Positions 1,295 to 32,087 of a stretch of DNA of 64,000 nucleotides are shown in pieces (the first letter of the stretch is position 1; every line of letters begins with the position of its first letter). The position numbers were made by a program, and so were the translations under genes. Below the pieces are notes generated by a model. That model did no database searches. It was given only the letters and a program-made list of their open reading frames with translations, and was not told where the DNA came from. This DNA is from Chloroflexia bacterium (GTDB lineage Bacteria > Chloroflexota > Chloroflexia > QHBQ01): NCBI GenBank assembly GCA_038229595.1, contig JBBROH010000002.1, forward strand, positions 9,214 to 73,213, given 5' to 3'.

Positions 1295-1303
1295 TGGTAT
1301 AAT
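1295..1303 (+). promoter_or_regulatory. extended -10 promoter element (TGgTATAAT) upstream of plsY
   Basis: ctgGTATAAT about 70 nt upstream of the plsY start. GGAAGGAGG Shine-Dalgarno at about 1353-1361. Confidence 0.3.
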
Positions 1304-2651: not shown

Positions 2652-3795
2652 CTACGGCGGGCAGTTTGGCGAGAACGTAGTCTATGTCGGCCTCCGTGTT
2701 GCTTGCGCCGAGGCTCAAGCGCAGGCTGCCGACTGCCAGTGCGTCAGGGATGCCCATTGCGCGCAGCACATGGCTGGGTTCGACCGCCCCGCTGGTGCAG
2801 GCCGAGGCCGAGCTAGCCGCGATACCCAGCAGATCGAGGCGCAGCAACAACGTCTCTGCCTCCACGTCGGGCAGGCAGAAGTTGGCGTTGCCAGGCAACC
2901 GCTCCACAGGGTGGCCGTTGAGGATCGCGCCAGGGATGCTGCCCAGCACCCCCCCGATCAGCCGCTCGCGCAAGCCACGCAGACGGGCCGCTTCAGCCTC
3001 CCGCTTCCCCTCAGCGATGGTCAGGGCGGTAGCGAGGCCGACGATCCCAGCCACATTCTCCGTGCCAGCCCGCCGCTTGCTCTCCTGCGAGCCGCCACTC
3101 TGCTGGTAGAGCAGGCGGCTGCCGCCACGCACGTACAGCACGCCCACCCCCTTCGGCCCGTAGAACTTGTGGGCCGAGAGCGCGAGCAAGTCTACCCCCA
3201 GCCGATCTACATCAAGGTCGAGGCTGCCACCCGCCTGCACCGCATCGCTGTGGAACGGCACAGCAGCCCGCTGCGCCACCGCCGCGATCTGCGCGATTGG
3301 GTTGATCGTCCCCACCTCGTTGTTGGCGTACATGATGCTGATCAGCCGCGTGTCGGGCTGGATCGCTGCCGCCACCGCGTCGGGGCTGACCATGCCAAAC
3401 CTGTCTACTGGTAGATATGTCACCTTGAAGCCGCGGTGGGCAAGGTACTCTGCGCTGTGCAACACCGCGTGATGCTCCGCTACGCTGGTGATGATGTGAC
3501 CCACCCCCTGCTGGGCGAGGGCTACACCCTTGAGCGCGAGGTTGTCGCTCTCTGTGCCACCGCTGGTGAAGATCAGCTCCTGCGGACGGCAATGCAGCAC
3601 CGCCGCCACCTGTCGCCGGGCCGCTTCCAGCCCCTCGTGCGCCAGCCGCCCCTCAGCGTGGACGCTGCTGGGGTTGCCATAGCTGGCGTTGAAGTAGGGT
3701 AGCATCGCGGCGATCACCTCAGGGGCGAGGGGCGTGGTCGCGGCGTGGTCAAAGTAGAGGCGGCGTGGGCCGCTGTTAAGCAAAACATCCATCAT
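2608..3795 (-). CDS. cysteine desulfurase (class V aminotransferase, IscS/NifS-like)
   Basis: SGGTESDNLALKG and PLP-lysine motif SAHKFYGPKGVGVLYVR. The ORF-track start at 3951 is probably too long. Internal MMDVLLNSGPRRLYFDHAATTP start at 3795 follows a GGTG-rich RBS. Convergently overlaps the moaB 3' end by 44 nt. Confidence 0.8.
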   Translation of the reverse strand: MMDVLLNSGPRRLYFDHAATTPLAPEVIAAMLPYFNASYGNPSSVHAEGRLAHEGLEAARRQVAAVLHCRPQELIFTSGGTESDNLALKGVALAQQGVGHIITSVAEHHAVLHSAEYLAHRGFKVTYLPVDRFGMVSPDAVAAAIQPDTRLISIMYANNEVGTINPIAQIAAVAQRAAVPFHSDAVQAGGSLDLDVDRLGVDLLALSAHKFYGPKGVGVLYVRGGSRLLYQQSGGSQESKRRAGTENVAGIVGLATALTIAEGKREAEAARLRGLRERLIGGVLGSIPGAILNGHPVERLPGNANFCLPDVEAETLLLRLDLLGIAASSASACTSGAVEPSHVLRAMGIPDALAVGSLRLSLGASNTEADIDYVLAKLPAVVNKLQSLKLRERSS

Positions 3796-3927
3796 TTCAC
3801 CCTGTTCTAGTGCAATGCCTATGGAGATCGGTAGCTGTTTCCTGCTATCATTATAACGACCGCTGCGTGAGAGGTCAATTAGCGTTTCGGCTTGACATTC
3901 TAGCCCTGGCAAACTAAACTTTACCCT

Positions 3928-4806
3928 ATGGAACAAAGCAGCCAAAGCCAACCGCCCATCCTCTCCTACGTGCAGGTGTTTCCTCTGCTACAGGCGAAGC
4001 GGGTTGGCACCACCCACACCACCCTCTCGCTCGACCTCAACCAGACGCGGGTGGCGGTGGAGCTTGACGAGGGGGGGGTTTCGCTACCCGACGGCCAGCA
4101 CCTACCCTGGGACGAAGTGGTAAAGGTGAGCGAGGGCGGGCGCAAGGGCTTCTACAAGTGTTACACCATCGAAGGTGGCACAGCGAGGGAGATCATGATC
4201 TTTAGCGGCCAAACCAACTGGCTACGCACCCTGATCGCTACCGAGGCGGCCCCCACCATGCTGGTCAGCGGCATCGTCATGCACCGCATCAAGGACACCA
4301 ACCCGCTGGAAGACACCCGCCGCAAGGTCAAGACGATAGCCCCCCTCAGTGGCGAAGTGTTGGACACCGCCACTGGCCTGGGCTACACTGCGATTGAGGC
4401 CGCGCGTGGGGCGGTGAGCCGCGTGCTGACCATCGAGCTAGACCCCGCCAGCTTGCAGGTGGCCCGCCTCAACCCCTGGTCGCGGGAGTTGTTCAGCAAC
4501 CCGCGCATCCAACAGATCGTGGGCGACAGTTATGCGGAAGTGCCGAAGCTGGCGGATGACCGCTTCAGCCGCATCATCCACGACCCGCCCACCTTCAGCC
4601 TGGGTGGGGAACTCTACTCTGGCGCGTTCTACAAACAACTATACCGGGTGCTGAAGCGCGGTGGCAAACTCTTTCACTACATTGGCGACCTGGAGAGCAA
4701 CTCTGGCGGGCGGGTGGTACGTGGCGTACTACAACGGCTGCAAGATGCGGGCTTTAAGCAGGTGACGAAGCGGCAGGATGCCTTCGGCCTGACAGCGATC
4801 AAGTAG
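3928..4806 (+). CDS. class I SAM-dependent methyltransferase (possible RNA/N-methylase, DPP motif)
   Basis: 292 aa. LDTATGLGYTAIEAA (motif I) and IIHDPPTFS (motif IV, DPPx) typical of amino-methylating Rossmann MTases. Has an about 100-aa N-terminal extra domain. Confidence 0.55.
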   Translation: MEQSSQSQPPILSYVQVFPLLQAKRVGTTHTTLSLDLNQTRVAVELDEGGVSLPDGQHLPWDEVVKVSEGGRKGFYKCYTIEGGTAREIMIFSGQTNWLRTLIATEAAPTMLVSGIVMHRIKDTNPLEDTRRKVKTIAPLSGEVLDTATGLGYTAIEAARGAVSRVLTIELDPASLQVARLNPWSRELFSNPRIQQIVGDSYAEVPKLADDRFSRIIHDPPTFSLGGELYSGAFYKQLYRVLKRGGKLFHYIGDLESNSGGRVVRGVLQRLQDAGFKQVTKRQDAFGLTAIK

Positions 4807-5799: not shown

Positions 5800-7599
5800 A
5801 TGTTCAAGAAGAAGAAGTTCCAGTGCAATATCAGCGAAGCAGCGGCCCAACCAGGTAGCGAGACATCCTCACAGCGGGTTAGCCAGCCTGCCCGCGACCC
5901 CGACGAGGTGCATACCAACCAGACAGTCAACGCGGACGGCAGCACGCCCGACCCGCGTAGTATGCTGGAAGCGATGATCAACAAGGTGGTTCACGCGGCT
6001 GGCAGCCAGGCGGGGATGGTCGCCCTCTACGAGGGGGATCGTCCATTCTACACCGCCAGCGTTGGCCTGGGCGAGGGCGAGGCGCGCAGCCTGGCCGCCA
6101 GCCTCCGCAGTATGCCAGAGTTGCAGGGCGAGGTGGGCGAACAGCAGGCCCAACACACGCTTGGCCTCACCCTCAGCCCAGCGGAGGCGGTCAGCGGCGT
6201 GGCCCGGCTCAAGGGCCACGACCTCCACCTGGTTGCTATCCCCCTACGTGGCGGCGACGGCATGGTGGGCCTGCTCTGCCTGCTCGAACCAGGGGAGGGT
6301 GGCGACCGCGAGGACATCTTCAACCGTCCCGACATCTACCAGATCATCGTAGATCAGGTGGACATTGTAGCCCAGAATACCCGCCTCTTGCAACGTATCC
6401 TCAACGAGAAGCACTGGTTGGAGGAGGTGATCCAGCAGACCAGCGAGGCGATCCTGGTGGTAGACCCGCAGCGGCGCATCATCGGCCTCAATCGCGCCCT
6501 CGAGCGGCTGACTGGCTGGACGGGGCCGCTGGCCTGGGGGCAAGATGCCGAGCAACTCTTTGACTTCCACACCGCAGCCAGCAGCCAGCAGAGTGGCAGC
6601 AACTACTCACCATCATCCAACTTGTTGCAACGGGCTAGCGGGCAGAGCAGCAACCTGCCTGCCATTCGCGGCCAACACATCGGCGACGGCTGGCTAAGTG
6701 AGCAGCTAACCACCACCCTGAATGACAGCAGCTATGCCGCCGTGCAGGAACTTACCCTCCTGGCCCACGACGGGCGGCGCGTGCCGGTGGAAGCCAGTTG
6801 CGGGCTGATCCGCGGCAACGACGGCGCAGTATTGGGTGCTACGCTCACCCTGCACGATATCCGCGCCCGCAAGGAGGCAGAGGCAATGCAGGCTACCTTC
6901 CTCTCGGTCGTCAGCCACGAGTTGCAAACCCCGATTGCGGTGATCAAGGGCTATGCGGGGCTGCTGGGCGACACCATCGGCGAGGAAAACGCGACCGCCC
7001 GCCAGCAGTTGGAGATCGTCAGCCAGGAGAGCGACCGCCTGAGCAAGATGGTGGAGAACTTGATGACCGTCACTCGCCTGCAAGCGGGCAAGCTGGACAT
7101 CAACCGCGAGCCACTCGACCCCTACAGCCTGCTCAACCGGGTCGCCACCCGCCTGCGTGTCCTGGTGGCCGAGCGGCCAGAGCGCAGGCTGACCGTTGCC
7201 CCCTATCCACCAAAGGGCGACGAGGTGGCTGGCGAGGAGCAACTGCCCGTAGTGATCGGCGACGAGCAGCGGATTGAGCAGGTGTTGACCAACCTGGTGG
7301 AGAACTCGCTGAAGTATGGGGCGGGCGAGATCACCCTGGCCGCTGAACGGCGGGGCAGCCACGTCTTGTTCAGCGTCAGCGACGAGGGTGAAGGCGTGCC
7401 AGCGCAGGAGCGGGAGCGCATCTTCACCCCCTTCACCCGCCTGGAGGGGCGCATGGTACGCGAGGCGAAGGGGGTGGGGCTGGGGCTGTACATCGCCCGC
7501 GAGATCATCAACGCCCTCGGCGGTAGCATCTGGGTGGAAGAAGCGGCTGGCGGCGGCGCAAGATTTGCTTTCACCCTACCTGTCAGCAAGGAAGACTGA
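5800..7599 (+). CDS. sensor histidine kinase with GAF and PAS sensory domains
   Basis: HisKA H-box SHELQTPIAVIKGYAGLL. HATPase_c G-boxes (GVGLGLYIAREIINALGGSIWVEE). PAS segment (ILVVDPQRRIIGLNRALERLTGW). Probable start at MFKKKKF (5800) rather than the ORF-track start 5758, which overlaps eamA. Confidence 0.8.
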   Translation: MFKKKKFQCNISEAAAQPGSETSSQRVSQPARDPDEVHTNQTVNADGSTPDPRSMLEAMINKVVHAAGSQAGMVALYEGDRPFYTASVGLGEGEARSLAASLRSMPELQGEVGEQQAQHTLGLTLSPAEAVSGVARLKGHDLHLVAIPLRGGDGMVGLLCLLEPGEGGDREDIFNRPDIYQIIVDQVDIVAQNTRLLQRILNEKHWLEEVIQQTSEAILVVDPQRRIIGLNRALERLTGWTGPLAWGQDAEQLFDFHTAASSQQSGSNYSPSSNLLQRASGQSSNLPAIRGQHIGDGWLSEQLTTTLNDSSYAAVQELTLLAHDGRRVPVEASCGLIRGNDGAVLGATLTLHDIRARKEAEAMQATFLSVVSHELQTPIAVIKGYAGLLGDTIGEENATARQQLEIVSQESDRLSKMVENLMTVTRLQAGKLDINREPLDPYSLLNRVATRLRVLVAERPERRLTVAPYPPKGDEVAGEEQLPVVIGDEQRIEQVLTNLVENSLKYGAGEITLAAERRGSHVLFSVSDEGEGVPAQERERIFTPFTRLEGRMVREAKGVGLGLYIAREIINALGGSIWVEEAAGGGARFAFTLPVSKED

Positions 7600-7649: not shown

Positions 7650-8372
7650 GTGGCCCAGACGATCCTCGTCGTAGACGACGAACCGCACTTGATCAACCTG
7701 CTCACCTCGATCCTGGAACAGGCCGAATATGGGGTGATCACCGCCAGCACTGGCCGCGAGGCGATCACCAAAACCCGCGAGGCGATCCCTGACCTGATCC
7801 TGCTGGATGTGATGATGCCTGGCATGGACGGCTTTGAGACGCTCAAGCAACTGCGGCAGGCGACCAACACGCCAGTGATCATGCTGACAGTGCAGGCCAG
7901 CGAGGCAGACCGGGTGCGCGGCCTTGAACTGGGGGCCGACGACTATGTTGCCAAACCCTTCAGCCACCGCGAACTGCTCAGTCGCATCAAGGCGGCCCTG
8001 CGGCGGGCGGCAATGGCCCCGACAGTGAGCAGCAGCGAGACGGTCAAGATCGATGAGCGGCTGACGATTGACTTCGATAAGCGCGAGGTGATCGTCGCTG
8101 GCAACGAGGTGAAGCTGCGACCCACCGAGTACCGCCTGCTATCGCAATTGGTCAACAATGCTGGGCGGCTGCTGACCCATGAGGCTCTGCTGACCCGCGT
8201 TTGGGGCCGCGAGTACCGCGACGACACGCAGTTGCTGCGCCTCTACATCACCTACCTGCGCCAGAAAATTGAGATCGACCCGGCCCACCCGAAGTACATC
8301 TTCAACGAACGCGGCCTCGGCTACCGCTTTGCCGACTATCGGGCGGAGCAGCAGGCCGCCCAGCCACAATAG
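7650..8372 (+). CDS. OmpR/PhoB-family response regulator (receiver + winged-helix)
   Basis: ILVVDDEPHL...DLILLDVMMPGMDGFE receiver. C-terminal trans_reg_C (RLLTHEALLTRVWG). Immediately downstream of the kinase. Confidence 0.85.
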   Translation: MAQTILVVDDEPHLINLLTSILEQAEYGVITASTGREAITKTREAIPDLILLDVMMPGMDGFETLKQLRQATNTPVIMLTVQASEADRVRGLELGADDYVAKPFSHRELLSRIKAALRRAAMAPTVSSSETVKIDERLTIDFDKREVIVAGNEVKLRPTEYRLLSQLVNNAGRLLTHEALLTRVWGREYRDDTQLLRLYITYLRQKIEIDPAHPKYIFNERGLGYRFADYRAEQQAAQPQ

Positions 8373-10077
8373 ACTGCCCGCAAAAGCCCCGCTCCTGTGC
8401 AGGAGTGGGGCTTTCTGTTTCCGCTGTAATGGGGCTGCCGAAGTCGGTCGGCACTGTAGAGCGTAAGGGCGTTGCGTCTATTGCCCTATGCACAACCTTG
8501 CTCAGTTCACCGCGCTTGATGCTGTCGTTGGGGCGGTAGCAGAGGCCGCTGCCACAAGTCGCGCCGCTGATGATCGCCCTGCTGTTCAGCGTTTCGATGT
8601 ACTGCCAGAAGACGTTGCTGCTCGGCACGTCGCTGAAGGTCGGCACAGTGGGGGTTGCCACGGCGTAGCCCCCGGCCCCCACCACAATTTTGGCTAGCTG
8701 CGCCCGCGTCACCGGCCCGTTTGGGCGGAAGTTGCCGTCGGGGAAGCCGCCGACCACTTGCCTGCTGACTAGCGTCTCAACATAGAGATAGAAGGGGTGA
8801 TTGGCTGGCACATCCACGAAGCGCGGCGTAGCGGGCGGCGTGACCAGCGGGATGCCAAAGCCGCTGACGATAATTTTGGTTACTTCACCGCGCGTTGTAT
8901 TGCCGTTGGGCCTGAAGTTACCGTCCGCGTAGCCATTGATTACCCCACGACAGGCAAGGAAGATGATGTCGTCGTAGAAGATATAGCTGGCAGGCACGTC
9001 GGGGAAGCTGCGTAGGCAAGGGGTGGCCGTCAGCGTCGGCGTGGGCGTGGGCGTTGGTGGGCCGGGAGTGGTTGTACACTGGGGGTTGTTGCTGTCGCCA
9101 GCGCAGCAGAGTGAGGGCGGGCAGGTGGTGGCTGAGAAGGTCGGTGTGGGCGTGTAAGTGCGCGTTGGTGGGCCGGGAGTGGTTGTACACTGGGGGTTGT
9201 TGCTGTCGCCAGCGCAGCAGACTGAGGGCGGGCAGGTGGTGGCTGAGAAGGTCGGCGTGGTCGTGTAAGCACGCGTTGGTGGGCCGGGAGTGGTTGCCGT
9301 CGGGCTGGGGTTAGCACTCGGTGTCCTGGTTGCGGTGGGCGGCGGGCCAAGTACGACTACACGTCCAGTCATGCCGGTGTGGATGTTGCACTGGTAATCG
9401 TAGGTGCCAGCCGTGTTGAATGTATAGCTGTAGACCGCGTTCTGGGCGAGGTTGCCAGAGTTCAGCACCCCCGGCGGGCTGGTCGAGTTGACGGTGTGGC
9501 TGGTAGCATCACGGTTCGTCCACTGCACCCTGGTGCCAACCGTGACGGTCAACACCTGGGGGGCGAAGGTGAAGCTCTGGATGTCTACTGCCACTGGCGC
9601 AGGCAGCACCACAATCCGCGCCGTCATGAACGGGTGCGGGTCGCAGAGGTAGTCGTAGACCCCGACCAGGGTGAAGGTGCGGCTAACAATGCGGTTGGTT
9701 GGTGAGATGGCGTAGGCAGTCTGGAATGGTTCTGGTGGAATGCTGCCGCTGTTCAGCGTTGAGGCATTGTGGCCGATCTGGTCGTAGTTGTCCCAGGCGA
9801 CAGTATCGCCAACGGTGATCGTCAACACGCGGGTGGTAAAGCAGAAGTTCTGGATCGCGACGGTAGCGGTGATCGATTGGTTGGCCGGGTGGTTGCTAGC
9901 ATCCACGTCAAACTGGCGTTGGTCACAGGGTAGACCCCCCTGCGGCTGTTGGTGCAGACTGTGGTTTGCAGGGGCCGCCAGGGTCGAGCCAGCAATGAGC
10001 AGCCCACTAACCAGCATGGTAAGGCCGAGGGCAAGAGCCAGCAGCGGCAGGATGGGCAAACGCTTCTCATCTTTCAT
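8302..10077 (-). CDS. secreted two-domain blue-copper (cupredoxin, auracyanin/plastocyanin-like) protein with repeat linker and three C-terminal SLH domains
   Basis: N-terminal signal peptide MKDEKRLPILPLLALALGLTMLVSGLLIAGSTLAAPA. Two type-1 Cu sites (YDYLCDPHPFMTARIVV; YDYQCNIHTGMTGRVVV: Cys-x2-His-x4-Met). Cys/Pro/Thr-rich duplicated linker. Three SLH-like repeats (FPDVPASYIFY..., FVDVPANHPFY..., FSDVPSSNVFW...). About 57-aa tail past the last SLH overlaps the regulator gene. Confidence 0.7.
   Translation of the reverse strand: MKDEKRLPILPLLALALGLTMLVSGLLIAGSTLAAPANHSLHQQPQGGLPCDQRQFDVDASNHPANQSITATVAIQNFCFTTRVLTITVGDTVAWDNYDQIGHNASTLNSGSIPPEPFQTAYAISPTNRIVSRTFTLVGVYDYLCDPHPFMTARIVVLPAPVAVDIQSFTFAPQVLTVTVGTRVQWTNRDATSHTVNSTSPPGVLNSGNLAQNAVYSYTFNTAGTYDYQCNIHTGMTGRVVVLGPPPTATRTPSANPSPTATTPGPPTRAYTTTPTFSATTCPPSVCCAGDSNNPQCTTTPGPPTRTYTPTPTFSATTCPPSLCCAGDSNNPQCTTTPGPPTPTPTPTLTATPCLRSFPDVPASYIFYDDIIFLACRGVINGYADGNFRPNGNTTRGEVTKIIVSGFGIPLVTPPATPRFVDVPANHPFYLYVETLVSRQVVGGFPDGNFRPNGPVTRAQLAKIVVGAGGYAVATPTVPTFSDVPSSNVFWQYIETLNSRAIISGATCGSGLCYRPNDSIKRGELSKVVHRAIDATPLRSTVPTDFGSPITAETESPTPAQERGFCGQSIVAGRPAAPPDSRQSGSRGRVR
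8386..8422 (+). terminator. putative intrinsic terminator of the kinase/regulator operon
   Basis: GCCCCGCTCCT-gtgc-AGGAGTGGGGC hairpin followed by TTTCTGTTTCC. Lies inside the 3' extension of the convergent cupredoxin ORF. Confidence 0.5.
9051..9310. repeat. 111-bp coding tandem repeat (2.3 copies) inside the cupredoxin linker
   Basis: cgttggtgggccgggagtggttgtacactgggggttgttgctgtcgccagcgcagcag... repeated at 9051, 9163 and partially at 9274. Encodes the duplicated peptide CTTTPGPPTRTYTPTPTFSATTCPPSLCCAGDSNNPQ. Confidence 0.8.
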
Positions 10078-10107
10078 CAGCGTCTCTCCTTCTCAATCCA
10101 GAACAGC

Positions 10108-10140
10108 AAAGAGCGGGAGCAGCTTGTCAGCCGCTCCCAT
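10108..10140 (-). terminator. weak candidate terminator between the two cupredoxin paralogues
   Basis: GGGAGCAGC-ttgtca-GCCGCTCCC imperfect hairpin. A-rich on the plus-strand 5' side, giving a U-tract for the minus-strand transcript. Confidence 0.25.
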
Positions 10141-10176
10141 TCATTATACCACTGCTAGCAAGTGGGGCGGGCGCGC

Positions 10177-11676
10177 TCAGGGTGCGCTGTCAATCGCCCG
10201 CTTGACGATCTTGGACAATTCACCGCGCTTGACATTATCATTGGGCCGGAAGCAAGTGCCGCCGCCACTGCTGCAAGCCGCCCCGTTGATGATCCCCCGG
10301 TTCGCCAGCGTCTCAACCGCTGCGTAGCCGAAGGCGGTGGCTGCCAAATCGCGGAAGGTCGGCAGGGCGGGGGTGACGACGGCGTACTGGCGCACGCGCT
10401 GCACGATCAGGGCAACCTGCACGCGGCTGATCAGCACGTTGGGGCCGTAGCAGTTGCCGGGGGTGCCGAGGGCAGCACATTGACTGGCCGCCAGGCCATT
10501 AACCGCCCCGGCGTGCGCGGCAGTCTCCACGTAACCGTAGAAGATGCTACCAGGGGCAACATCTACGAAGGTCTGGCTGCCAGTGGGGGTGAAGGCGGGC
10601 AGGCCGAAGCCGAGGGCGGCGATTTTGGCGAACTGGCCCCGCGCCGGGTTGTTGTTGGGCAGGAAGCTGTTGCCGCCGGGCGGGTTCGGGTTGGGGTAGC
10701 CGCTAAGCACACCACGACAGGCGAGGTACTGGATTTCGTTGTAGAAGATGTAGCCACTCGGCACGTCGGTGAAGCTGACGGTGCAGGGGGTGGCTGTCGC
10801 GCCGCCAGGGATAGCTGTCGGGCTACCAGGGGTTGCAGTGGCCGTGGCGGTAGCAGCAGCAGTAGTAGCAGTTGGACTACTAGCGGCCCCAGTGTTGGTT
10901 GGGCCAGGGGTTGGCGTAGGGGTAGGTGGGTCGATCACGACTACGGTTCCAGCCATGCCAGGATGGAAGTCGCATTGATACTGGTAAGTGCCAGCGGTGG
11001 CGAAGGCGTGGGTATAAACATCGCCCGCCGCCATTGTGCCAGAGTTGAGGATAGCGGGCAGGCCGATGGAGGTGACAGTGTGAGCGCGGGCGTTGCTGGT
11101 CGGGTTCGTCCAGGAGACGATGGAACCAGCGGTGATCGTGATCACTGCGGGGCTGAAGAAGTTATTGCCTATCGCCACTGGCACTACCTGCGGCAGCACC
11201 TCTACGATGCCAGCCATGTCGGGGGCGTGTGGGTCGCACCAGTAGTAGTAGCGACCAGGGCGGTAGAAGGTGTGCTGCACGCTATGCGGCTGCCCAGGGT
11301 TCGACTCTGGGGCGGCAAAGCCGGTCAAGAAGTCCTGCGGCTGGGTGTAACCAAGCGGCCCGGTGCTGCTATCTGCGCGCACGTTGTGGAAGAAGTTGCC
11401 GCCATTATGCCAAACCACAGTGTCGCCAGCGGTGATCGTTACTACGGTGGGGGCGACGAAGTTGTCGCCCATCTCCACCGTGATCACGCTGCTGGGGCCA
11501 ATGTGGCTGGCATCAAGGAAGCTGGCTGGGGGTTGCGCGCCCGCGTGGTGCTGGTGGCCGCTGCTCTGCCCAGCGAAGGCTGATCCTACAACGAACAGGC
11601 TGCCCAGCAGCAGCAGCAAACCGAAGCTGACCGCCACCAACGTCCCCAAACGGGGCTTGCTCTCTACTGTTTCCAT
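10177..11676 (-). CDS. secreted two-domain cupredoxin protein with Thr/Pro/Ala linker and C-terminal SLH domains (paralogue of 8302..10077)
   Basis: Signal peptide METVESKPRLGTLVAVSFGLLLLLGSLFVVGSAFA. The start at 11676 was chosen over the ORF-track start 11907. Cu sites YYYWCDPHAPDMAGIVEV and YQYQCDFHPGMAGTVVVI. Linker PTPTPTPGPTNTGAASSPTATTAAATATATA. SLH repeats FTDVPSGYIFYNEIQYLACRGVLSGY..., FVDVAPGSIFYGYVE..., FRDLAATAFGYAAVETLANRGIINGA... Confidence 0.7.
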   Translation of the reverse strand: METVESKPRLGTLVAVSFGLLLLLGSLFVVGSAFAGQSSGHQHHAGAQPPASFLDASHIGPSSVITVEMGDNFVAPTVVTITAGDTVVWHNGGNFFHNVRADSSTGPLGYTQPQDFLTGFAAPESNPGQPHSVQHTFYRPGRYYYWCDPHAPDMAGIVEVLPQVVPVAIGNNFFSPAVITITAGSIVSWTNPTSNARAHTVTSIGLPAILNSGTMAAGDVYTHAFATAGTYQYQCDFHPGMAGTVVVIDPPTPTPTPGPTNTGAASSPTATTAAATATATATPGSPTAIPGGATATPCTVSFTDVPSGYIFYNEIQYLACRGVLSGYPNPNPPGGNSFLPNNNPARGQFAKIAALGFGLPAFTPTGSQTFVDVAPGSIFYGYVETAAHAGAVNGLAASQCAALGTPGNCYGPNVLISRVQVALIVQRVRQYAVVTPALPTFRDLAATAFGYAAVETLANRGIINGAACSSGGGTCFRPNDNVKRGELSKIVKRAIDSAP

Positions 11677-11836
11677 TTTTCTCAACCCTTTCTCTGCACG
11701 ATACCCCGTCGCGGTCTCTGCGGCGGCTACGAAGCACTGCCATATTATACTACAAATCTTACATCTGGCCCAGGGAGGGGATGGGGTAGTTGTAGGGCCG
11801 TATGGCGCACAGCCACAAGCAAATGTGGTACGCGAA

Positions 11837-12283
11837 TCACTTCGTCGTTGGCGCATGGAAGGCCATCGTGCTGGCACGGCTGGGGCCAATCGCCATCGGC
11901 TTGCCATCGGTCTGGTAGACGCTGATCAGGTTGCGGGCGGGGTCGCGCACCCAGGCGTGTCGCCAGCCCCAGGGCATCAGCGCAGGCAGGCGCACAATCT
12001 CCACATCTTCAGAGTGCAGCACGCTGATCAGTTGATCCAGGTTCTCCACCTCGATGTTAAGTTCGATGCTGTTGCCTTTGTTGTGGAAGGGGTGGTCGGT
12101 ATTGTGCTTGACGATCCGCATGATCGCCCCCTCGCCAATGGTGGGCTTGATAATCGCGTAGTTCTCGATCAGGTCGGAGACAACCACCTGGAAGCCAAAC
12201 AACCGGTCGAAGAAGTCTAGCTCCTTGAATACATCTGGCACGTAGATCGTAAGAAACTGCATCCCGCTGAACTGCTGCGCCAT
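11837..12283 (-). CDS. VOC/glyoxalase-bleomycin-resistance family protein
   Basis: 148 aa. beta-alpha-beta-beta-beta module pattern (IMRIVKHNTDHPFHNKGNSIELNIEVENLDQLISVLHSEDVEIV). Assignment by fold-family resemblance only. Confidence 0.55.
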   Translation of the reverse strand: MAQQFSGMQFLTIYVPDVFKELDFFDRLFGFQVVVSDLIENYAIIKPTIGEGAIMRIVKHNTDHPFHNKGNSIELNIEVENLDQLISVLHSEDVEIVRLPALMPWGWRHAWVRDPARNLISVYQTDGKPMAIGPSRASTMAFHAPTTK

Positions 12284-14988: not shown

Positions 14989-15189
14989 CGTTCGCCTCGT
15001 GTTGTTGATGGTCTCTATGTCGCTAGCTGCGGGCAGGGTTTGCTGCTACCCGCTGGGCCGCCCCGATCAAGGCAGGCTTGGGGCAAGAAGATAGCCCCTC
15101 GCGACAGATTGTTCTCCTATTATACCAACTTAGCGTTAGAATAGGATTAGCCCGCCTCCGGTGGGGAGGCGGGCCGGGTCATATGCTGG

Positions 15190-21595: not shown

Positions 21596-23164
21596 ATGCC
21601 GCTAATCAAGATGCTGGTGCGCCTCAGCGCGTTTTTGGGCAAGGAGGTAGCCGAGGTGCGGCGGCAATTGCGCCTGGTCTTTACCCTGGTGCTTGGCCCC
21701 TTCCTCATCCTCTTTATCTTCGGTATCGGCTACGTCAGCAAGCAGCAGAGCCTGACTACGATCATCGTGGGGCCGCCAGGAACGCAGGCTCGCAGTGCGG
21801 AGATCAAGAAGCAGTTTGCTGTTGAGCAACTGGACGTGCGCGAAGTGACGGAAGACCTAGGCCGGGCGATGAGCGAACTACATGACCGCCGGGTAGATGC
21901 GGTGGCGGTGATTCCCACCGACCCCTACAGCGACATCTTGGGCGGCAAGCAGGCCGAATTGCGGCTCAACGTCAACGAGATTGACCCGGTGAAGATCAAC
22001 ATCGTCTACTTCCTCACCTATGCCTACTCTAACGAACTGAACAAGCGCATCCTCGAAGCGGGCTTCAAGCAAGGGCAGGCGGGCCTTACCGACTTGCAGG
22101 GGCAGGTGGGCCAATTGCGCCAGGCGGTCAACCGCTTGCAAGCGGGCTTGCAGGCCAACGACGTGCAGGCGGTGACGAAGGAGAGTGGCGACCTGCTGAC
22201 TAGCAGCAACTCCGTCCTGGTCGTTCTCGCCGTCGCGGGCGGTGCCGTAAACAACGACCAGCTAGCAGCAGTGCCGATCAGCCCGGCAGGTCAGCAGAAG
22301 GTGGACAGCATCAACAAGGCGCAGACCGCTATCCGCCGCCTGAACGACAACGTGCAGGCGATCCGCAGCGATGCCCTGCGCGGCCAGGCGAGTCGGGAGC
22401 AGCAGGTGCAACGCCTCAAGCAGGTAGATGAAGACCTCGCTACCCTGGAAGCAACCACTGGGCAGATCACCAACATCGCCCCCGGTGTCCTGGTCTCCCC
22501 CTTCCGCGCCATCGTCAAGAATGAGGCCAGCAAGGAGGACAACTCCAACGGCGTTGAGATCAACTTCATCAACTACTACACCCCTGCCGTCCTTGCCCTG
22601 CTGCTCCAACACATCGCCGTCACCTTCGCAGCCCTCTCGCTAGTGCGTGAACGGACAATCGGCACGCTCGAACTGTTCCGCGTCGCCCCGATCCACGCCA
22701 CCGAAATCCTGGTCAGCAAGTACGTTGCCTACATCCTGTTCGTGGCCGTGGTCGGTGCTGCCCTGGTCGGTGCGCTAGTCAGCCCGCTGCTGGGCGTACC
22801 GTTCAAGGGCGACCCCGTCTGGTTCAGCCTGACCGCCCTCGCGCTGGTCTTCGCCAGCCTGGGCCTGGGCTTCTTCATCAGCCTAATCTCCCAAACCGAG
22901 TCGCAGGCGGTGCAGTTGTCGATGCTGGTGCTGCTCACCTCGGTCTTCTTCAGCGGCTTCTTCCTCTCGCTCAGCAGCTTCAACCAGTACGTGCAGTATG
23001 GAGCGCAAGGGCTACCGATCACTCACGGCATCCAGGGCTTCCAGCAGGTCATGCTGCGCGGCCAGCTACCGACCGACTACGTAATCGGCGCACTGACGAC
23101 GATGGGGCTGATCTTCTTCGTGATCAACTGGCTGCTGTTCCGCCGCGAGTTGGCTAAGGGCTAA
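21596..23164 (+). CDS. ABC-2 family permease with large extracytoplasmic coiled-coil domain
   Basis: N-terminal TM, about 280-aa soluble Gln/Ala-rich domain, five C-terminal TM helices. Translationally coupled to the ATPase. Confidence 0.7.
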   Translation: MPLIKMLVRLSAFLGKEVAEVRRQLRLVFTLVLGPFLILFIFGIGYVSKQQSLTTIIVGPPGTQARSAEIKKQFAVEQLDVREVTEDLGRAMSELHDRRVDAVAVIPTDPYSDILGGKQAELRLNVNEIDPVKINIVYFLTYAYSNELNKRILEAGFKQGQAGLTDLQGQVGQLRQAVNRLQAGLQANDVQAVTKESGDLLTSSNSVLVVLAVAGGAVNNDQLAAVPISPAGQQKVDSINKAQTAIRRLNDNVQAIRSDALRGQASREQQVQRLKQVDEDLATLEATTGQITNIAPGVLVSPFRAIVKNEASKEDNSNGVEINFINYYTPAVLALLLQHIAVTFAALSLVRERTIGTLELFRVAPIHATEILVSKYVAYILFVAVVGAALVGALVSPLLGVPFKGDPVWFSLTALALVFASLGLGFFISLISQTESQAVQLSMLVLLTSVFFSGFFLSLSSFNQYVQYGAQGLPITHGIQGFQQVMLRGQLPTDYVIGALTTMGLIFFVINWLLFRRELAKG

Positions 23165-25717
23165 CTCGCCTAGCAGGTTGAAGACCGCCTGGGCTGCCTG
23201 CGCCCGCGTCAGGGTGCTGCGTGGCGAGAAGGTGGTCGCGCTCGTCCCTTGCATCAGGCCGTGCAGCCGGGCCGCCTCTACCCAGCCGTAGAAGATATTG
23301 CTGGGCGACACGTCGCTGAAGCTGGGGCTGGCTGGCTGTTGGGGGCCGAAGCCAGCCGCAGCGGTTAGCATCTTCGCCATCTGCTCCCGCGTTACGCTGG
23401 CGTAGGGCTGGAAGTTGCCATCGCTGTAGCCACTAATCACCCCATGTGCGTAGGCGGTCTCCACGTAGCGGTAGAGGAGGTTGCTGGCTGGCACGTCGCG
23501 GAAGGTGGCAGTAGCAGGGTTGAGCAACGGCCAGCCCTGGGCCTGGGTCAGCATCTTGGCTAGCTCGTCCCGCCGCACCTGGGCGTTGGGCGCAAACAGG
23601 TTCGGCCCTGTCCCCTGCACCACCCCACGAGCATTGAGCCAACTGATCGCTGTCCAGGCCCAGTAACTATTTGGCACATCAATGTAAGTGTAGGTGGCCG
23701 CCTTCTGGCGGATCAGTTCGCGCTGCACCGCCCGCAGGTTGACCGCCCGTGGCTGGATGTTGGCTGCCGCCGCTTGCGCCGCCGCGACCCCCGCCGCCTG
23801 GCCCATTGCCGCCCGCACTGGCTCCATCCGCAACGCGCCAAAGCCGAGGTGGGTGGCCGAGGCCGCCAGCGGCACCAACAAACCATCCAACCTGAGTGGC
23901 ACGATTGCGCGGTATGGCACCTGGTAGGGCTGGGTGTTGCCCAACCACATATTGCCATCTGCGAACTGCCTGCCATTGCCGTCAGCGATCAGGCGCACGG
24001 TATGCGAGTCCAACGCGTACTGGCCGGTGGCGATGCTGTCGGTGAAGTAGCGGCTGACCGTGCTGCACCCCTGGCTGAGGCAGGCGTAATCGCGCTCGCT
24101 GAGGGTGTATTCGCCGATTAGCCGATTACCCTCGCGGATGTAGAGCAAGGGTGGCAGGCCGTCTAGTGTGCCGTACTCGTTGGTAGGCAGCCAGTCTTGG
24201 GCGGCAGGCACCCGCTGGCGCGCCCAGTAGACAAAGCTGAGGGCGTAGAGGCGGTGTTGCTGCTCAATAGCCGAGCGGCTGGCGGGGTTGGTCAGGTAGT
24301 TGTCCTCGCGCTCGACCGAGAGGTAGTTGCCGCCAGGGATATCGGCATAGTTCAGTTCGATCTTGTTGTTCGGCAGCAACCGCCGCCAGTTGAACCAGAT
24401 GTCGTTGAAGTAGCCGATGCTGTTTGCGCCATTGGTCGTGCTGAACTGCTGCACATACGCCTGGTAGAGGCTGTTCTGGTCGCCAGTGCGCCCCTGTGGA
24501 TCGGCGATGCTGGCGAAGGGGTGGGGCATAGTGCGGTTCGGCTGGTAGACGAGGGTCATCAGGTAGCTGTAGGCTTGCAAGCCGTAGTCGCCGTCGCCGA
24601 CCGACTCGCCGACCTGGGGCGGCACGAAGGTCTTGCCCGCGTCCAGTTCGTCAAAGGTGCGCGGGCGCAGAGGGAGCGGGGCAGCATTGTCGGTGCTGCT
24701 ACGTTCGCGGCCAAAGGCATAGTCCTGCCAGCGGGTGCCAGCGTCGGCCAGCACGTCGCCGCGGCTGGTCGCATCGATCACCACTTTGCCGTAGAGCGCA
24801 CTGCTCTGCCCCCCGCTGAGGACGTAGACCCCGCGCACGCTATTGCCCGCAGTGATCACCCCGCTGTAAGCGGTGTTGAGCAGCAGAGTGACAGTCAGCC
24901 CTTGCAGCAGTTGCATCATCTGGTTCTGGGCCACCAGTGGCTCATAGGTGAAGCCGTCGGTGGGGTAGTCATTCGCAGGATTGCAGACCAGGTTGTAGAC
25001 TTGCAGGTAGGCGGCGTGGGTCGGCGGGGTAGTAGCGGTGTTGGTGTACCAGGTGTAGAGCGAGTGGCCGCTATAATAGCTGCCGCCGCCCACTTTGGCC
25101 TGCATCGCCCCGGCCACCGTCGGCTGCTCGAAGTTAGTATCTACCAGCAGCGGCGGCGGGCTGTAGCATTGCAGTTGGCCGCTGTTGCGCTGGCTGCGGT
25201 AGTAGGCGCGCACCGCCAGGCGAAACTGCTCGAACAGGCCGCTGATCGCTGTCGGGTTGCCGTCGGTTGCGCCGAGGCCGCCCGCACTGACCATGCCGCC
25301 CAGCCAGCCGCTCTCCTCGACCAGTGCAACCCGCGCCCCCAGCCGGGCCGCAGCAACGGCAGCCGCCACCCCCGCCGAGGTACCGCCCACTACCACCACG
25401 TCGAACTGGTTGGCGGCGGGCGTAGCCGTTGGCGGCGGGACAGTTGTCGCAGTCGCAGTCAGGGTGGCGGTAGCGGTCACAGTCGCAGTCGCAGCCGCAG
25501 TCAGGGTGGCGGTAGCGGTAGCGGTCACAGTCGCAGTCGCAGTCAGGGTGGCGGTAGGGGTCAGAGACGTGGCTGGGGTGGGGGTTGCGCTGGGCGGGTC
25601 AGCGGTGGCCGTCGCGGTGGGGTTGCCACCGCTGGGGGCGGGCTGGCTCTGCGCCTGTGCGAGGGTGGGGAGCAGCAGGCTGGCGACGAGGATAAGCAGG
25701 AACAGGCGGTGCTTCAA
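23066..25717 (-). CDS. secreted FAD-dependent oxidoreductase (FAD_oxidored family) with Thr/Ala repeat linker and C-terminal SLH domains
   Basis: Signal peptide MKHRLFLLILVASLLLPTLAQA. Rossmann dinucleotide motif VVVVGGTSAGVAAAVAAARLGARVALVEESGWLGGM. About 550-aa catalytic region. SLH repeats FRDVPASNLLYRYVETAYAHGVISGY..., FSDVSPSNIFYGWVEAARLHGLMQG... Convergently overlaps the ABC-2 permease 3' end by 99 nt. Confidence 0.65.
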   Translation of the reverse strand: MKHRLFLLILVASLLLPTLAQAQSQPAPSGGNPTATATADPPSATPTPATSLTPTATLTATATVTATATATLTAAATATVTATATLTATATTVPPPTATPAANQFDVVVVGGTSAGVAAAVAAARLGARVALVEESGWLGGMVSAGGLGATDGNPTAISGLFEQFRLAVRAYYRSQRNSGQLQCYSPPPLLVDTNFEQPTVAGAMQAKVGGGSYYSGHSLYTWYTNTATTPPTHAAYLQVYNLVCNPANDYPTDGFTYEPLVAQNQMMQLLQGLTVTLLLNTAYSGVITAGNSVRGVYVLSGGQSSALYGKVVIDATSRGDVLADAGTRWQDYAFGRERSSTDNAAPLPLRPRTFDELDAGKTFVPPQVGESVGDGDYGLQAYSYLMTLVYQPNRTMPHPFASIADPQGRTGDQNSLYQAYVQQFSTTNGANSIGYFNDIWFNWRRLLPNNKIELNYADIPGGNYLSVEREDNYLTNPASRSAIEQQHRLYALSFVYWARQRVPAAQDWLPTNEYGTLDGLPPLLYIREGNRLIGEYTLSERDYACLSQGCSTVSRYFTDSIATGQYALDSHTVRLIADGNGRQFADGNMWLGNTQPYQVPYRAIVPLRLDGLLVPLAASATHLGFGALRMEPVRAAMGQAAGVAAAQAAAANIQPRAVNLRAVQRELIRQKAATYTYIDVPNSYWAWTAISWLNARGVVQGTGPNLFAPNAQVRRDELAKMLTQAQGWPLLNPATATFRDVPASNLLYRYVETAYAHGVISGYSDGNFQPYASVTREQMAKMLTAAAGFGPQQPASPSFSDVSPSNIFYGWVEAARLHGLMQGTSATTFSPRSTLTRAQAAQAVFNLLGELALSQLAAEQQPVDHEEDQPHRRQCADYVVGR
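25441..25570. repeat. short-period coding tandem repeats (gtcgcagtc/gcggtagcggtcaca units) encoding a (T-A-T-V/L)n linker
   Basis: Visible periodicity cgcagtcgcagtcagggtggcggtagcggtcacagt... repeated about 3 times. Translates to TATLTATATVTATATATLTAAATATVTATATLTATATT. Confidence 0.6.
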
Positions 25718-26098: not shown

Positions 26099-26377
26099 TC
26101 AATCCAGCCCGATTGACCAGATCGCTTCCATGTCCTTGCGCGAGTAGCACTGGAAGGCCACCATCGTGCGCGTGTTGGTAATCGCGCTGATCGCGGCAAA
26201 GCGGCTGGTCACCACGTCGGCCAACGCCTCGTACTCCTTCACCCGCACGATAGCCACCAGATCGTACTCGCCAGTGACAGAGTAGACCTCCTTCACCTCT
26301 GGGATCGCCAGCAGAGCCTCGGCGGTGGCCGGGATGCGCTGCCGCTCGGCTCCAATCATCACGATTGCGGTAATCAT
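26099..26377 (-). CDS. stand-alone Lrp/AsnC ligand-binding (RAM) domain protein
   Basis: 92 aa. [75 protein letters not shown] is the beta-alpha-beta-beta-alpha-beta RAM fold pattern with no DNA-binding domain. Start overlaps the kinase stop by 4 nt. Confidence 0.55.
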
Positions 26378-28932
26378 ACCGTTTCCTCCCTCTCGTTGGC
26401 AACCTTGAGCAACTCGTTGGCCCGGCTGCCGCCGTCCTCCGCACTGTGCGCCTCTTGCAGGGTGATCGGCCCCTCGGCACTGAGAACGCGGTCGCCGATC
26501 ATGCGCGGTGTGTCCCACTCCACTTGCGGGTGGGTCTCCACCTCCTCCTCGTCCAGCGGCAAGACCTCTGGCGGGCTAAACTGGCCCGGCTCTGGCTGCT
26601 CGCTGATCAGCGGCAAGGTGATAGTGAAGGTGCTACCCTCCCCTTCGCCCTTGCTGAAGACCGCCACGGTGCCGCCCATCAGGGTCGCCAGGCGGCGCGT
26701 GATCGCCAGACCGAGGCCAGTGCCACCGTACTGCCGGGTAGTAGAGCCGTCGGCTTGACGGAACTCCTCGAAGATCAGGGCGTACTTGTCCTGGGGGATG
26801 CCGATGCCAGTGTCGGTCACGGTTAGGGCGTAGAGTTCGTTGCTCACCCGCCGCGCCCGCACCGTCACGCTGCCAGTGTTGGTGAACTTGACGGCATTGG
26901 AGGCGAGATTAAGCAGGATTTGTTGCAGGCGGTCAGAGTCGCCGATCAGGGTGGGTGGGAGTTGGGGGTCAATATAGTGGCGCAGAGCCAGCTTCTTCTG
27001 CTGGGCCAGCGGCCCGACCGTGTTGAGGACGGTGAGGATCAGTTCGCGCACCGAGAACGGAGCAGTGACCAACTCAAAGCGACCCGCCTCAATCTTAGAG
27101 AGGTCCAGCACGTCCGTGATCAGGTTGAGCAAGGTGCCTGCGTTGCGCTGCACCCGACCCAGGCTGGTCTGCTGGCCCTCGTTCAACTCGCCAAACAGAC
27201 CATCCAGCAGCATATCAACGTAGCCAATAATCGAGTTGAGCGGGGTACGCAGTTCGTGGCTGATAGTGGAGAGAAACTCGGTCTTGAGGCGGCTGATCGA
27301 GAGCAACTGCTCGTTCGCGCTCCGCAAGTCGGTGTAGATGCGGGCCGTCTCCAACACGGCGGCGGCCTGGTTGGTGAACAACACCAACATCTGCTCATCA
27401 TCGTCGCTGAACACCCGCCGCTCGCTGTCGTCCAACACATCCAGCACGCCGATCAGCTTGCCGCGCTTGTTAAGCAGCGGGCTGGCGATCACGGCGGTGA
27501 AAGGGGAGTCGGCGTAGCGGGCTGCCTTCCCCTCCCAGGTGCGGTAGTTGTTGACCCTGAGCGGCTGGCGGCTGGCAGCCACCTGCCCGGCCAACCCCTC
27601 ACCAACTGCCAGGTAGGTGCCGCAGTAATCGCGGTCTAGATTGTAGGAGGTAACGCATTCCAGCCGGTGCTGACTGCTATCATAGAGGTAGATCGCTGCC
27701 CCACGCGCCGAGAGCAGGCTAACCGAGTGCAGGGTGACAGTATCGAGCAGATTTTGCAGTTCGCGCTGGCGGGTGATCTCCAACGAGGTGCGATAGATCA
27801 ACTCCAACTGCTGCGCCCTTTTCTCTGCGTCGCTAAGTTGCGCGAGGCTGTAGAGCGCGCCGACCAGTTGGCCGCCAATGATGGCGAATACATCGAGGTC
27901 GTCAGCATCCGCCTGCGCCAACAGGGTCGAGCCGACGATCAGCAAGCCAGCCAACCTGCCGCCGCCAAGCAGCGGGGTGATGATCGCGCTGCCCAGGTGC
28001 AGTTGCTTGAGCAGGGGCAGGTAGAAGTCGTTTTGTTCGCTGCTGCAAGCTACTGGGCGGCCCTCGTCGGTCAGGGCGGCCCACAACGGTTGGTCGGGGT
28101 CGAAGGGGAGAGCAAGGCTGGGGGTGATGCGCCGTTCGGCCAGCAAACCAGAGCGGGCGACCAACTGCTCCCCCTCCACCAGCATGACCAAGCCGAACTC
28201 GTAGCCGAACTCGCCGGTGACGACCGCCACGATGTGATCGAGCAGAGCCTGGCGGTCGAGGGTGCCGCTGATTTCGGTGCCAACCCGGTGCATGGCAAAG
28301 AGGCCCGCCAGCCGCCTACCCAGGCGGTCGCGGGAGTGGCTAACCTCGGCCTCGGTTGCGCTCACCTGCTCCAAATGGCTCTCTGCCTCCTGCAACTGCG
28401 CCTCAAGGTGCTGGTACTGGTCGCGCAGATGGGTATAGCGGCGGGTGTAGTTGAGGGTAGCGGCGATCAGGCGGGCCGCTGGCTTGACCTTCTGCAACTC
28501 CTCCTGCCCCAGGGTGCCGGGCTTGCGGCTCTCCAGGTTGAGGACACCGATCACCTCACCGTCCACCACCAGGGGCAAAGCCAGTTCGCCCATCGAAGTG
28601 GGTGGGCCAATCTTGCCGTACACGGCATCCAGGTTGAAGTATTCGGGGTCGCGGCCAGGGTGGGTGATGATCGCGGCCCGCCCGCTCTGGGCCACTCGCT
28701 GCACGATCCCGCGACCAGGCGGCAAGCTGAGGCCAACTGGATTGTAGCTGATCGGGCGGGCCGACCAGTAGGCGACAAACATCAGGTCGTCGCTCTCTGG
28801 CTGGCGCAGCAACACAGAAGCCTGATCGAACTGCACGATCTCGGCCAGGCTGGCTAGCATGGTAGTCAGATCGCGTTCGACCGATAGTTCGCGGTCGCTA
28901 CTTGCGGGTTGGGCGGTGGCTGCGCTGGTCAT
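26374..28932 (-). CDS. multi-GAF sensor histidine kinase
   Basis: 852 aa. At least three GAF-like modules. Coiled-coil. His[21 protein letters not shown]. HATPase_c ([11 protein letters not shown]..., [38 protein letters not shown]). No receiver domain. Confidence 0.8.
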
Positions 28933-28943
28933 GGCTGGCTACT

Positions 28944-29381
28944 CTAGTTGCTAGGTGCGCTGGGTTGGGGCGGCAGGGTCGCGGGCGAAGAATGGTACTC
29001 GGCCAACTGCTGCTCAACCATACTGACGAGGGCGTTGATCGTGATCGGCTTGGTCAGGTAGGCACTGCACCCGGCTTGCAGAGCCAGGTCACGGTCGTCG
29101 CTGAGAACGTTGGCGGTGAGGGCGACGATGGGGCGGCTGACGAACTCTGGCAAGGCACGGATCATCCGCGCCGCTTGCCAGCCGTCAAGGATGGGCAGCG
29201 AGAGGTCCATCAAGATCAGGTCGGGTTGGGGGCCGTCTTTGCCAGCGGCCATGCAGATGTTGACTGCTTCGCGCCCGTTGACCGCTTCGATCACCCGGTA
29301 GCCGCGCAAGGTAAGTAGTATCTTTACCATGTCGCGGCTATCGAAATTGTCTTCTACCACCAGGATCAACTCACCGGCCAT
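28944..29381 (-). CDS. single-domain (CheY-like) response regulator receiver
   Basis: LILVVEDNFDSRDMV...DLILMDLSLPILDGWQ...ALTANVLSDDRDLALQAGCSAYLTKPI. No output domain. Start taken at MAGELILVV (29381). Confidence 0.8.
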   Translation of the reverse strand: MAGELILVVEDNFDSRDMVKILLTLRGYRVIEAVNGREAVNICMAAGKDGPQPDLILMDLSLPILDGWQAARMIRALPEFVSRPIVALTANVLSDDRDLALQAGCSAYLTKPITINALVSMVEQQLAEYHSSPATLPPQPSAPSN

Positions 29382-29486
29382 TAGCTGCTCCCTTGCCGCA
29401 CCAGATAACGGCCCACCCATATTTTGGTTCGCAAGGCTATTATAACACAGTAGCAAGGTAGATAGGAGAAACAGGCTAGCCGCTCG

Positions 29487-32086: not shown

Positions 32087-32087
32087 T

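Follow-up and report, generated by a model that had tools for sequence, protein, structure and literature searches.

Two adjacent genes on the minus strand of a 64,000-nucleotide (nt) stretch of DNA from a Chloroflexia bacterium (positions 9,214 to 73,213 of contig JBBROH010000002.1, assembly GCA_038229595.1; hereafter the window, in whose own numbering all coordinates are given) encode exported-type proteins in which two blue-copper domains are joined to a predicted cell-wall anchor. Gene A (8302–10077, minus strand, 591 amino acids (aa)) consists of an N-terminal export segment, two cupredoxin domains, a Cys-bearing Pro/Thr-rich linker, three S-layer homology (SLH) repeats and an unconstrained C-terminal tail, and gene B (10177–11676, minus strand, 499 aa) consists of an export segment, a His-rich GHQHH motif, two cupredoxin domains, a Pro/Thr- and Ala-rich linker and three SLH repeats. 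With a probability that we put at about 0.6, the two products are wall-tethered one-electron shuttles, i.e., pairs of type-1 copper domains held in the cell-wall zone. The analysis established the domain identities, ligand sets and folds of these proteins, the purifying selection acting on them, the promoters and the terminator around their genes, and the behaviour of a tandem repeat in the linker of A. Both modules are well known; what is rare and undescribed is their combination, which does not amount to a new kind of system.

Pfam and NCBIfam both place A and B in Copper-bind as well as in SLH. In A, Pfam finds two Copper-bind stretches (E 7.6e-19) and three SLH stretches (E 1.1e-33); in B, it finds two Copper-bind stretches (E 7.1e-15) and two SLH stretches (E 2e-14), and the third SLH repeat of B is seen through alignment and motif rather than by Pfam. 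The open reading frame (ORF) of B spans 10177–11907 on the minus strand, and the METVESK codon at 11676 is the conserved start, which is also called in relatives. A has a syntenic orthologue of 90% identity (P0001), and a 591-aa protein identical to its product occurs in the protein collection (P0294), though the contig index lists no exact copy of that product; the genome closest to the host is JAYUUN01, of an uncultured Chloroflexota lineage. Against a relative at about 91% DNA identity, the cupredoxin and SLH parts each have a ratio of nonsynonymous to synonymous substitution rates (dN/dS) of 0.08, the linker one of 0.19 and the tail one of 0.77. The low values in the cupredoxin and SLH parts show that both modules are real and constrained. 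A structure model of A is confident for domain 1 (residues 56–158), domain 2 (162–243) and the SLH triplet (about 350–535), and gives a predicted local distance difference test score (pLDDT) below 50 for the linker (245–340) and the last approximately 50 residues. Thus Pfam, alignment and the structure model together confirm the tandem paralogues of the preliminary description, each with an export segment, two type-1 cupredoxins, a linker and three SLH repeats.

The export segment of A covers residues 1–35 (9973–10077, minus strand), where the model places a helix at residues 9–28. Putative signal peptides were recognised by their n/h/c layout, ending at TLA/AP in A and at AFA/GQ in B, and no lipobox Cys is present; the segment of A may be a signal peptide cleaved at TLA/AP or an uncleaved membrane anchor. 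When the cupredoxin domains of the two proteins are compared, domain 1 pairs with domain 1 (41%) and domain 2 with domain 2 (51%), from which it follows that the gene pair arose through duplication of a gene that already carried two cupredoxin domains.

The evidence that these domains can carry copper is the completeness of their ligand sets, on which the preliminary description had staked its case. In A, domain 1 (aa 56–158; 9604–9912, minus strand; pLDDT approximately 80–90) has the ligands H103, C145, H148 and M151 with the loop CDPHPFM, and domain 2 (aa 162–243; 9349–9594, minus strand; pLDDT approximately 95) has H194, C230, H233 and M236, so that the copper loops read C145-x2-H148-x2-M151 and C230-x2-H233-x2-M236. 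In B, the loops CDPHAPDM of domain 1 (aa 53–160; 11197–11520, minus strand) and CDFHPGM of domain 2 (aa 164–248; 10933–11187, minus strand), both assigned by Pfam and alignment, correspond to C147-x2-H150-x3-M154 and C235-x2-H238-x2-M241. In all four domains, the upstream His and the Cys/His/Met loop align with His53, Cys92, His95 and Met98 of amicyanin. The PF00127 Copper-bind scores are 68.4 bits for A and 55.7 bits for B against a cutoff of 21.2, each over two stretches, and in the structure model of A the cupredoxin domains have a Greek-key beta-sandwich fold at pLDDT 80–97. As a separate observation, B residues 36–46 (approximately 11550–11570) hold the His-rich GHQHH directly behind the export segment, and His-rich motifs (GHQHH, HHAH, HAAGHSAH, HVH) stand just behind the export segment in B and in the homologues P0020, P0003 and P0011; such a motif may provide a further site for binding or loading copper.

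The preliminary description had set these proteins against the auracyanins, the lipid- or transmembrane-anchored surface blue-copper proteins of Chloroflexus and Roseiflexus. A phmmer search of all Protein Data Bank (PDB) chains returned amicyanin as the closest relative with a solved structure for both domains (E 1.7e-12 and 4.8e-10), followed by plastocyanin and pseudoazurin, and no auracyanin or azurin chain was found at E ≤ 10. Auracyanin structures are deposited in the PDB. Foldseek likewise gave amicyanin as the best fold match, with a template modelling (TM) score of 0.75, a root-mean-square deviation (rmsd) of 1.3–1.4 Å (1.4 Å for domain 2 of A) and 37% identity. Because no auracyanin or azurin chain matches at that threshold, and with an amicyanin-type CxPHPFM loop in place, the auracyanin frame is wrong, and by sequence and fold the domains are amicyanin-like rather than auracyanin-like. 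The auracyanins A and B do share the phylum and the surface-tethered blue copper with the present proteins, and they serve membrane respiratory and photosynthetic complexes; however, they are azurin-like, single-domain and membrane-anchored, whereas A and B have SLH anchors.

The likeness to amicyanin (MauC of methylotrophic Proteobacteria) extends from the best sequence and fold match to the four ligands and the short loop, CTPHPFM in amicyanin and CDPHPFM in A. However, amicyanin consists of one soluble periplasmic domain whose gene stands in the mau cluster beside methylamine dehydrogenase, whereas A and B have two tandem domains and a wall anchor, and no methylamine dehydrogenase (mau) genes were found in the window or in the syntenic loci. 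Amicyanin proper was rejected because of the missing mau genes and the scores against the amicyanin equivalog model TIGR02657 of NCBIfam (97.8 for A and 55.4 for B, both under the cutoff of 110.2). Two-domain multicopper oxidases and the nitrite reductase NirK, which Foldseek lists and which also have two consecutive cupredoxin folds, were rejected as well: the laccase and NirK superpositions give rmsd values of 17–20 Å at a TM of approximately 0.2, and the cupredoxin domains of A and B contain no HxH motifs of the type-2/3 kind, so that neither protein is a multicopper enzyme.

The C-terminal repeats, the other feature that the preliminary description had put at stake, match the SLH hidden Markov model far above threshold. 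PF00395 scores 115 bits over three stretches in A and 53.7 bits over two in B. The triplet of A (aa 353–537; 8467–9021, minus strand) carries the motifs TRGE, TRAQ and KRGE, and the triplet of B (aa 297–499; 10180–10788, minus strand), recognised by Pfam and alignment, carries ARGQ, SRVQ and KRGE with a Cys-bracketed insertion in repeat 2. In an alignment with Sap of Bacillus anthracis, repeat 1 of A matches the TRAE motif of Sap, and the Arg is retained there and at the equivalent position in the other two repeats; each of the three repeats of B likewise has an Arg at the TRAE-type position. Foldseek superimposes the triplet of A on 3pyw (TM 0.84), 6bt4 (TM 0.84) and 7sv3 (TM 0.77); the Sap superposition (TM 0.84) takes in its complex with a pyruvylated wall-polymer unit, and SpaA of Paenibacillus alvei was also matched. 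With the Firmicutes SLH proteins (B. anthracis Sap, P. alvei SpaA and clostridial glycanases), A and B thus share a three-repeat fold (TM 0.84 and 0.77), the Arg motifs and the use of a generic anchor for varied passengers. In contrast, the passenger of A and B is a redox carrier rather than a lattice or hydrolase domain, and their host belongs to a phylum reported to be mostly without SLH and CsaB.

The closest SLH regions in the databases are fused to peptidase M14, Kelch, sialidase-like, FG-GAP, subtilase and cellulase modules, in proteins labelled Chloroflexia or Chloroflexota where a name exists; evidently, from these fusions, SLH serves as a general exoprotein anchor in this lineage. A phylum-wide survey had reported that SLH and CsaB are generally lost in Chloroflexi (10.1101/2021.05.31.446380), and the SLH content of the predicted proteins makes the present lineage an exception as regards SLH. 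The window also encodes an 883-aa flavin adenine dinucleotide (FAD)-dependent oxidoreductase (PF12831) with three C-terminal SLH repeats (23066–25717, minus strand), which may be another redox protein held at the wall and could conceivably pass electrons to the cupredoxins. Apart from this, a 1538-aa secreted-type protein at 46741–51357 (plus strand) combines Lamin-tail, endonuclease/exonuclease/phosphatase, CHRD, SLH and DUF4397 domains.

The rarity of the combination was assessed by an exhaustive search of the di-cupredoxin head against 1.84 billion representative sequences, beside word-indexed searches of 5.8 billion sequences; a word-indexed search with the cupredoxin head alone returned 11 matches and missed even the orthologue. 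The exhaustive search found 27,014 relatives of the head. The 149 best of them mostly have 3–9 tandem type-1 domains, 68 of the 149 end in a hydrophobic C-terminal segment, and only 5 carry SLH. The word-indexed searches added a few further SLH-bearing proteins. Altogether, cupredoxin plus SLH was found in about 16 clusters, which are assigned to Chloroflexota where they are named. These include proteins with one to five cupredoxins plus SLH (P0002, P0003, P0011, P0020, P0051, P0145, P0157, P0201 and P0271, with up to 4–5 cupredoxin domains in P0002, P0003, P0145 and P0157), fusions of cupredoxin and SLH with Kelch (P0004, P0080) or with peptidase M14 (P0094), and two metagenomic proteins (P0005, P0057) in which a pyrroloquinoline quinone (PQQ)-type glucose/sorbosone dehydrogenase (PF07995), SLH and a C-terminal cupredoxin form a single polypeptide. 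The last two suggest that wall-anchored dehydrogenases may be the electron donors of such cupredoxins. The C-x2-H-x2-5-M loop is kept in all 17 SLH-linked cupredoxin proteins examined.

Among the relatives lacking SLH, the nearest single-domain ones (P0122–P0131, metagenomic) end in sorting tails of the type IX secretion system (T9SS; Por_Secre_tail, PF18962), and they are presumably Bacteroidota proteins tethered to the surface by another route than SLH, whereas others have 3–12 tandem copies (P0017, P0132 and following). All of these uncharacterised proteins resemble A and B in their amicyanin-like type-1 domains and differ from them in the anchor, which is often a hydrophobic C-terminus; judging from such tails and segments, tethering of cupredoxins is common by means other than SLH. 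Database names read only "plastocyanin", "cupredoxin domain-containing" or "S-layer homology domain-containing", and a literature search on cupredoxin or blue copper with SLH, on auracyanin with S-layer and on tandem or multi-cupredoxin proteins returned nothing relevant. The view that an SLH-anchored di-cupredoxin is unusual is therefore upheld by the 5 in 149 best relatives, the approximately 16 clusters and the absence of any paper on the combination from the literature search.

From these features we infer how the proteins would be exported, bound to the wall and loaded with copper, and in which direction and between which partners electrons would flow. The proteins would be exported by the Sec route through their N-terminal hydrophobic segment, and the SLH triplet would then bind a pyruvylated secondary cell-wall polymer non-covalently, as in B. 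anthracis Sap and P. alvei SpaA, to judge from the conserved fold and motifs. The disordered Pro/Thr linker (approximately 110 aa in A and 50 aa in B) would serve as a leash on which the compact di-cupredoxin head swings between the wall anchor and its partners, and Cu(II)/Cu(I) cycling would link extracytoplasmic redox enzymes with the membrane respiratory chain by moving electrons between them. Such anchoring would keep the carrier with a cell that probably lacks an outer membrane. Dehydrogenases that are anchored to the wall and depend on PQQ or FAD are candidate donors; the only hints at partners are the dehydrogenase–SLH–cupredoxin fusions P0005 and P0057 and the FAD oxidoreductase–SLH gene 13 kb away. 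The periplasm-like electron transfer at the envelope that the preliminary description had read into the architecture is plausible.

Several points weigh against a wall-tethered shuttle. No redox partner, be it a cytochrome c, alternative complex III (ACIII), an oxidase or a dehydrogenase operon, is encoded in the window or beside the distant homologues. The hydrophobic N-terminal stretch is long, approximately 26 residues, and might persist as a membrane anchor. CsaB (PF04230, PS_pyruv_trans) is absent from the Pfam-scanned proteins of the window and from the gene calls of the syntenic relative L001, a scan that did not cover the ORF at 62064–62381 or ORFs missed by the gene call. Since SLH and CsaB are reported as generally lost in the phylum (10.1101/2021.05.31.446380), the wall ligand is only a predicted one.

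The same architecture could also be read as a wall-tethered form of copper handling like that of CopI, in which the proteins act on copper at the envelope by binding, oxidising or buffering it instead of taking part in respiration. Extra copper sites would then be provided by the His-rich motif (in B, GHQHH) and perhaps by the Cys-rich units in the linker of A. We regard this as unlikely. B residues 38–99 do match the CopI model of NCBIfam weakly (NF051440, E 0.014), but at 15.2 bits against a cutoff of 280, and A gives no match. The recurrence of His-rich motifs behind the export segment (B, P0020, P0003, P0011) and the four Cys of each linker unit in A speak for copper binding beyond the type-1 sites, yet the Cys unit is missing in B and in all other homologues. 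Adjacent cop or cus genes are likewise missing, the only metal-transport gene in the window being a cation diffusion facilitator (CDF) efflux gene approximately 40 kb away, and the neighbouring kinase is of a cytoplasmic PAS type rather than a periplasmic sensor, with a terminator between its side and A.

A doubtful proposal of similar standing would place the proteins at the outer face of the wall as an outward-facing conduit, taking electrons from extracellular Fe(II), Mn(II) or reduced organics, or passing them to extracellular acceptors, much as multihaem cytochromes anchored in the wall do in Gram-positive metal reducers, but with copper. The predicted wall anchor, the long flexible linkers and the tandem redox centres would suit such a conduit, as would the existence of relatives with up to 4–5 cupredoxins plus SLH and of untethered ones with up to 9–12, and type-1 copper potentials fit metal oxidation, as in rusticyanin. 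However, A and B have just two centres each, no associated oxidase, porin or cytochrome genes occur in the window, and the similarity to rusticyanin is negligible (E 0.073). That the cupredoxin folds are mere beta-sandwich spacers of structural wall proteins, with no redox role, is very improbable: many SLH proteins of the lineage do contain non-catalytic beta-rich modules, but the full ligand set is kept by each of the four domains, by the orthologues and by every one of the 17 SLH-linked relatives, and dN/dS is 0.08. Wall-tethered electron shuttling by A and B is thus the reading that we prefer.

The linker of A (aa 244–352; 9022–9348, minus strand; pLDDT < 50, dN/dS 0.19) is Pro/Thr-rich and predicted to be disordered, and it contains a 111-bp tandem repeat at 9029–9296 (minus strand). 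Tandem Repeats Finder reports a period of 111, 2.4 copies, 92% matches and a score of 459, so that the period and the Cys-rich unit of the preliminary description stand and its copy number of 2.3 becomes 2.4. A full copy is translated into a unit of 37 aa, four of which are Cys (C-x4-CC-x8-C), and the translation TTPGPPTR.YT.TPTFSATTCPPS[VL]CCAGDSNNPQC occurs twice. Outside gene A and its close orthologues, the unit was found neither elsewhere in the window nor in B or any other homologue. Each unit gained or lost changes the length of the linker, and the units probably form disulfide-stapled knots. The linker of B has a weaker tandem repeat of its own, 21 bp in approximately two copies (10784–10832, minus strand), which is also seen in L001 (9250–9292).

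The repeat had been thought recent, which does not hold. A 2.4-copy array with identical boundaries occurs in the syntenic relatives L001–L004 and L040–L042 and is shared with a lineage approximately 9% diverged in DNA, so that the duplication predates that split. The copies within one genome are alike at 106/111 and 104/111 positions, whereas orthologous copies are alike at 99–101/111, and the differences between copies form a mosaic spread across assemblies; because of this greater likeness within genomes and the mosaic pattern, the comparison points to homogenisation by conversion, i.e., concerted evolution, rather than to new duplication. As to the suggestion that the repeat varies in length, 550-aa alleles of A that lack exactly one 37-aa unit exist in L037, L038 and L039 (gene at 3001–4653) and belong to the 90% cluster of A. 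Their single copy is a chimera of the 5′ part of copy 1 and the 3′ part of copy 2, joined inside a 47-nt stretch identical in both copies, as expected from unequal crossing-over. However, these alleles come only from three MEGAHIT k141 metagenome assemblies of one European Nucleotide Archive (ENA) series, a fourth assembly of which has a 587-aa form, and collapse during assembly may also account for them, so that length variation is plausible only.

A and B each have a promoter of their own. The −10 box GTATAAT lies at 10143–10149 for A (TGGTATAAT) and at 11744–11750 for B, both on the minus strand, approximately 65–70 nt ahead of the starts and conserved in L001. GTATAAT occurs six times in the window against an expectation of 0.7 (1234–1240(−), 1297–1303(+), 10143–10149(−), 11744–11750(−), 15119–15125(−) and 41064–41070(−)). 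Because all six stand in intergenic DNA, each ahead of a gene on its own strand, these are likely to be genuine −10 boxes in this genome of 63% GC. Between the stop of B and the start of A lies a hairpin (10114–10139, minus strand), a putative terminator of B and/or element of the 5′ untranslated region of A, in which a G–C pair is replaced by A–U through compensatory change in L001. With a conserved box for each gene and a hairpin between them, A and B look like separate transcription units.

A second, bidirectional terminator-like hairpin (8382–8415; −25.3 kcal/mol, z −3.6) stands between A and a convergent response regulator gene, and its stem is retained with different bases in L001 and L004, i.e., by compensatory changes. 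Paralogue B ends directly after its ...RAIDSAP, whereas A continues for 54 codons across this hairpin. The resulting tail (aa 538–591 plus stop; 8302–8466, minus strand; pLDDT < 45) reads through the terminator and enters the last 71 bp of the regulator gene in antisense; it has a dN/dS of 0.77 where it is intergenic and is conserved only where the gene on the opposite strand constrains it. The tail is best seen as the consequence of a lost stop codon, i.e., a neutral read-through rather than a functional domain. Transcription that ends at the hairpin would leave the mRNA of A without a stop codon (non-stop).

The convergent neighbours are an OmpR-type response regulator (7650–8372, plus strand), whose 3′ end overlaps the ORF of A by 71 bp, and a cytoplasmic histidine kinase without transmembrane segment (5800–7599, plus strand). 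The kinase had been described as a GAF-PAS kinase lying, with the regulator, immediately upstream of the pair and convergent with it, and as a possible regulator of it. Pfam finds PAS together with HisKA and HATPase_c but no GAF domain in the kinase, and the two genes are indeed convergent with A but lie downstream of it. Around the distant SLH–cupredoxin homologues the kinase and regulator are absent, the contexts there being housekeeping genes with no conserved neighbours. An operon or regulon with the kinase and regulator was rejected: the genes converge on a terminator hairpin that is conserved, A and B are each preceded by a GTATAAT promoter, and the adjacency is not conserved. Because of the convergent arrangement behind the hairpin and the separate promoters, there is no sign of a regulatory link.

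Elsewhere in the window, a second two-component pair, consisting of a histidine kinase with three GAF domains and a stand-alone receiver protein, occupies 26374–29456 (minus strand). Next to it, an operon at 29647–35895 (minus strand) encodes a 418-aa terpene-cyclase-like toroid protein, a 629-aa CbiQ-like protein, a double ATP-binding cassette (ABC) ATPase and an energy-coupling factor (ECF) S-component, with an adenosylcobalamin (AdoCbl) riboswitch (57.7 bits; 35890–36031, minus strand) directly upstream. The operon probably serves B12/corrinoid uptake, with a first gene that is unusual for such a system.

The finding is a modest one, as both modules are textbook domains and the proteins are already auto-annotated in databases. 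Its interest lies in where the carrier is held. Small soluble electron carriers require a closed periplasm, and the only devices known to us that keep carriers near the membrane of single-membrane bacteria are lipid and transmembrane anchors, as in the auracyanins and in Gram-positive cytochromes c. Holding blue-copper carriers at the wall by non-covalent binding would add a third device to these two. It is also conceivable, though we hold it improbable, that SLH-tethered blue-copper chains, with two domains here and 3–5 in relatives, form a copper electron relay through the wall of Chloroflexota without an outer membrane, wiring wall-anchored PQQ or FAD dehydrogenases or extracellular Fe(II)/Mn(II) donors to the membrane respiratory chain. 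If this were true, such a relay would do with copper what conduits of multihaem cytochromes do in Gram-positive metal reducers, and this in a phylum regarded as having lost SLH and CsaB. The wealth of SLH exoproteins found here bears on how the envelope of this phylum is reconstructed, given that SLH and CsaB are reported as largely lost in it, and together with the dehydrogenase–SLH–cupredoxin fusions the wall-anchored carriers would point to redox chemistry inside the Chloroflexota cell wall.

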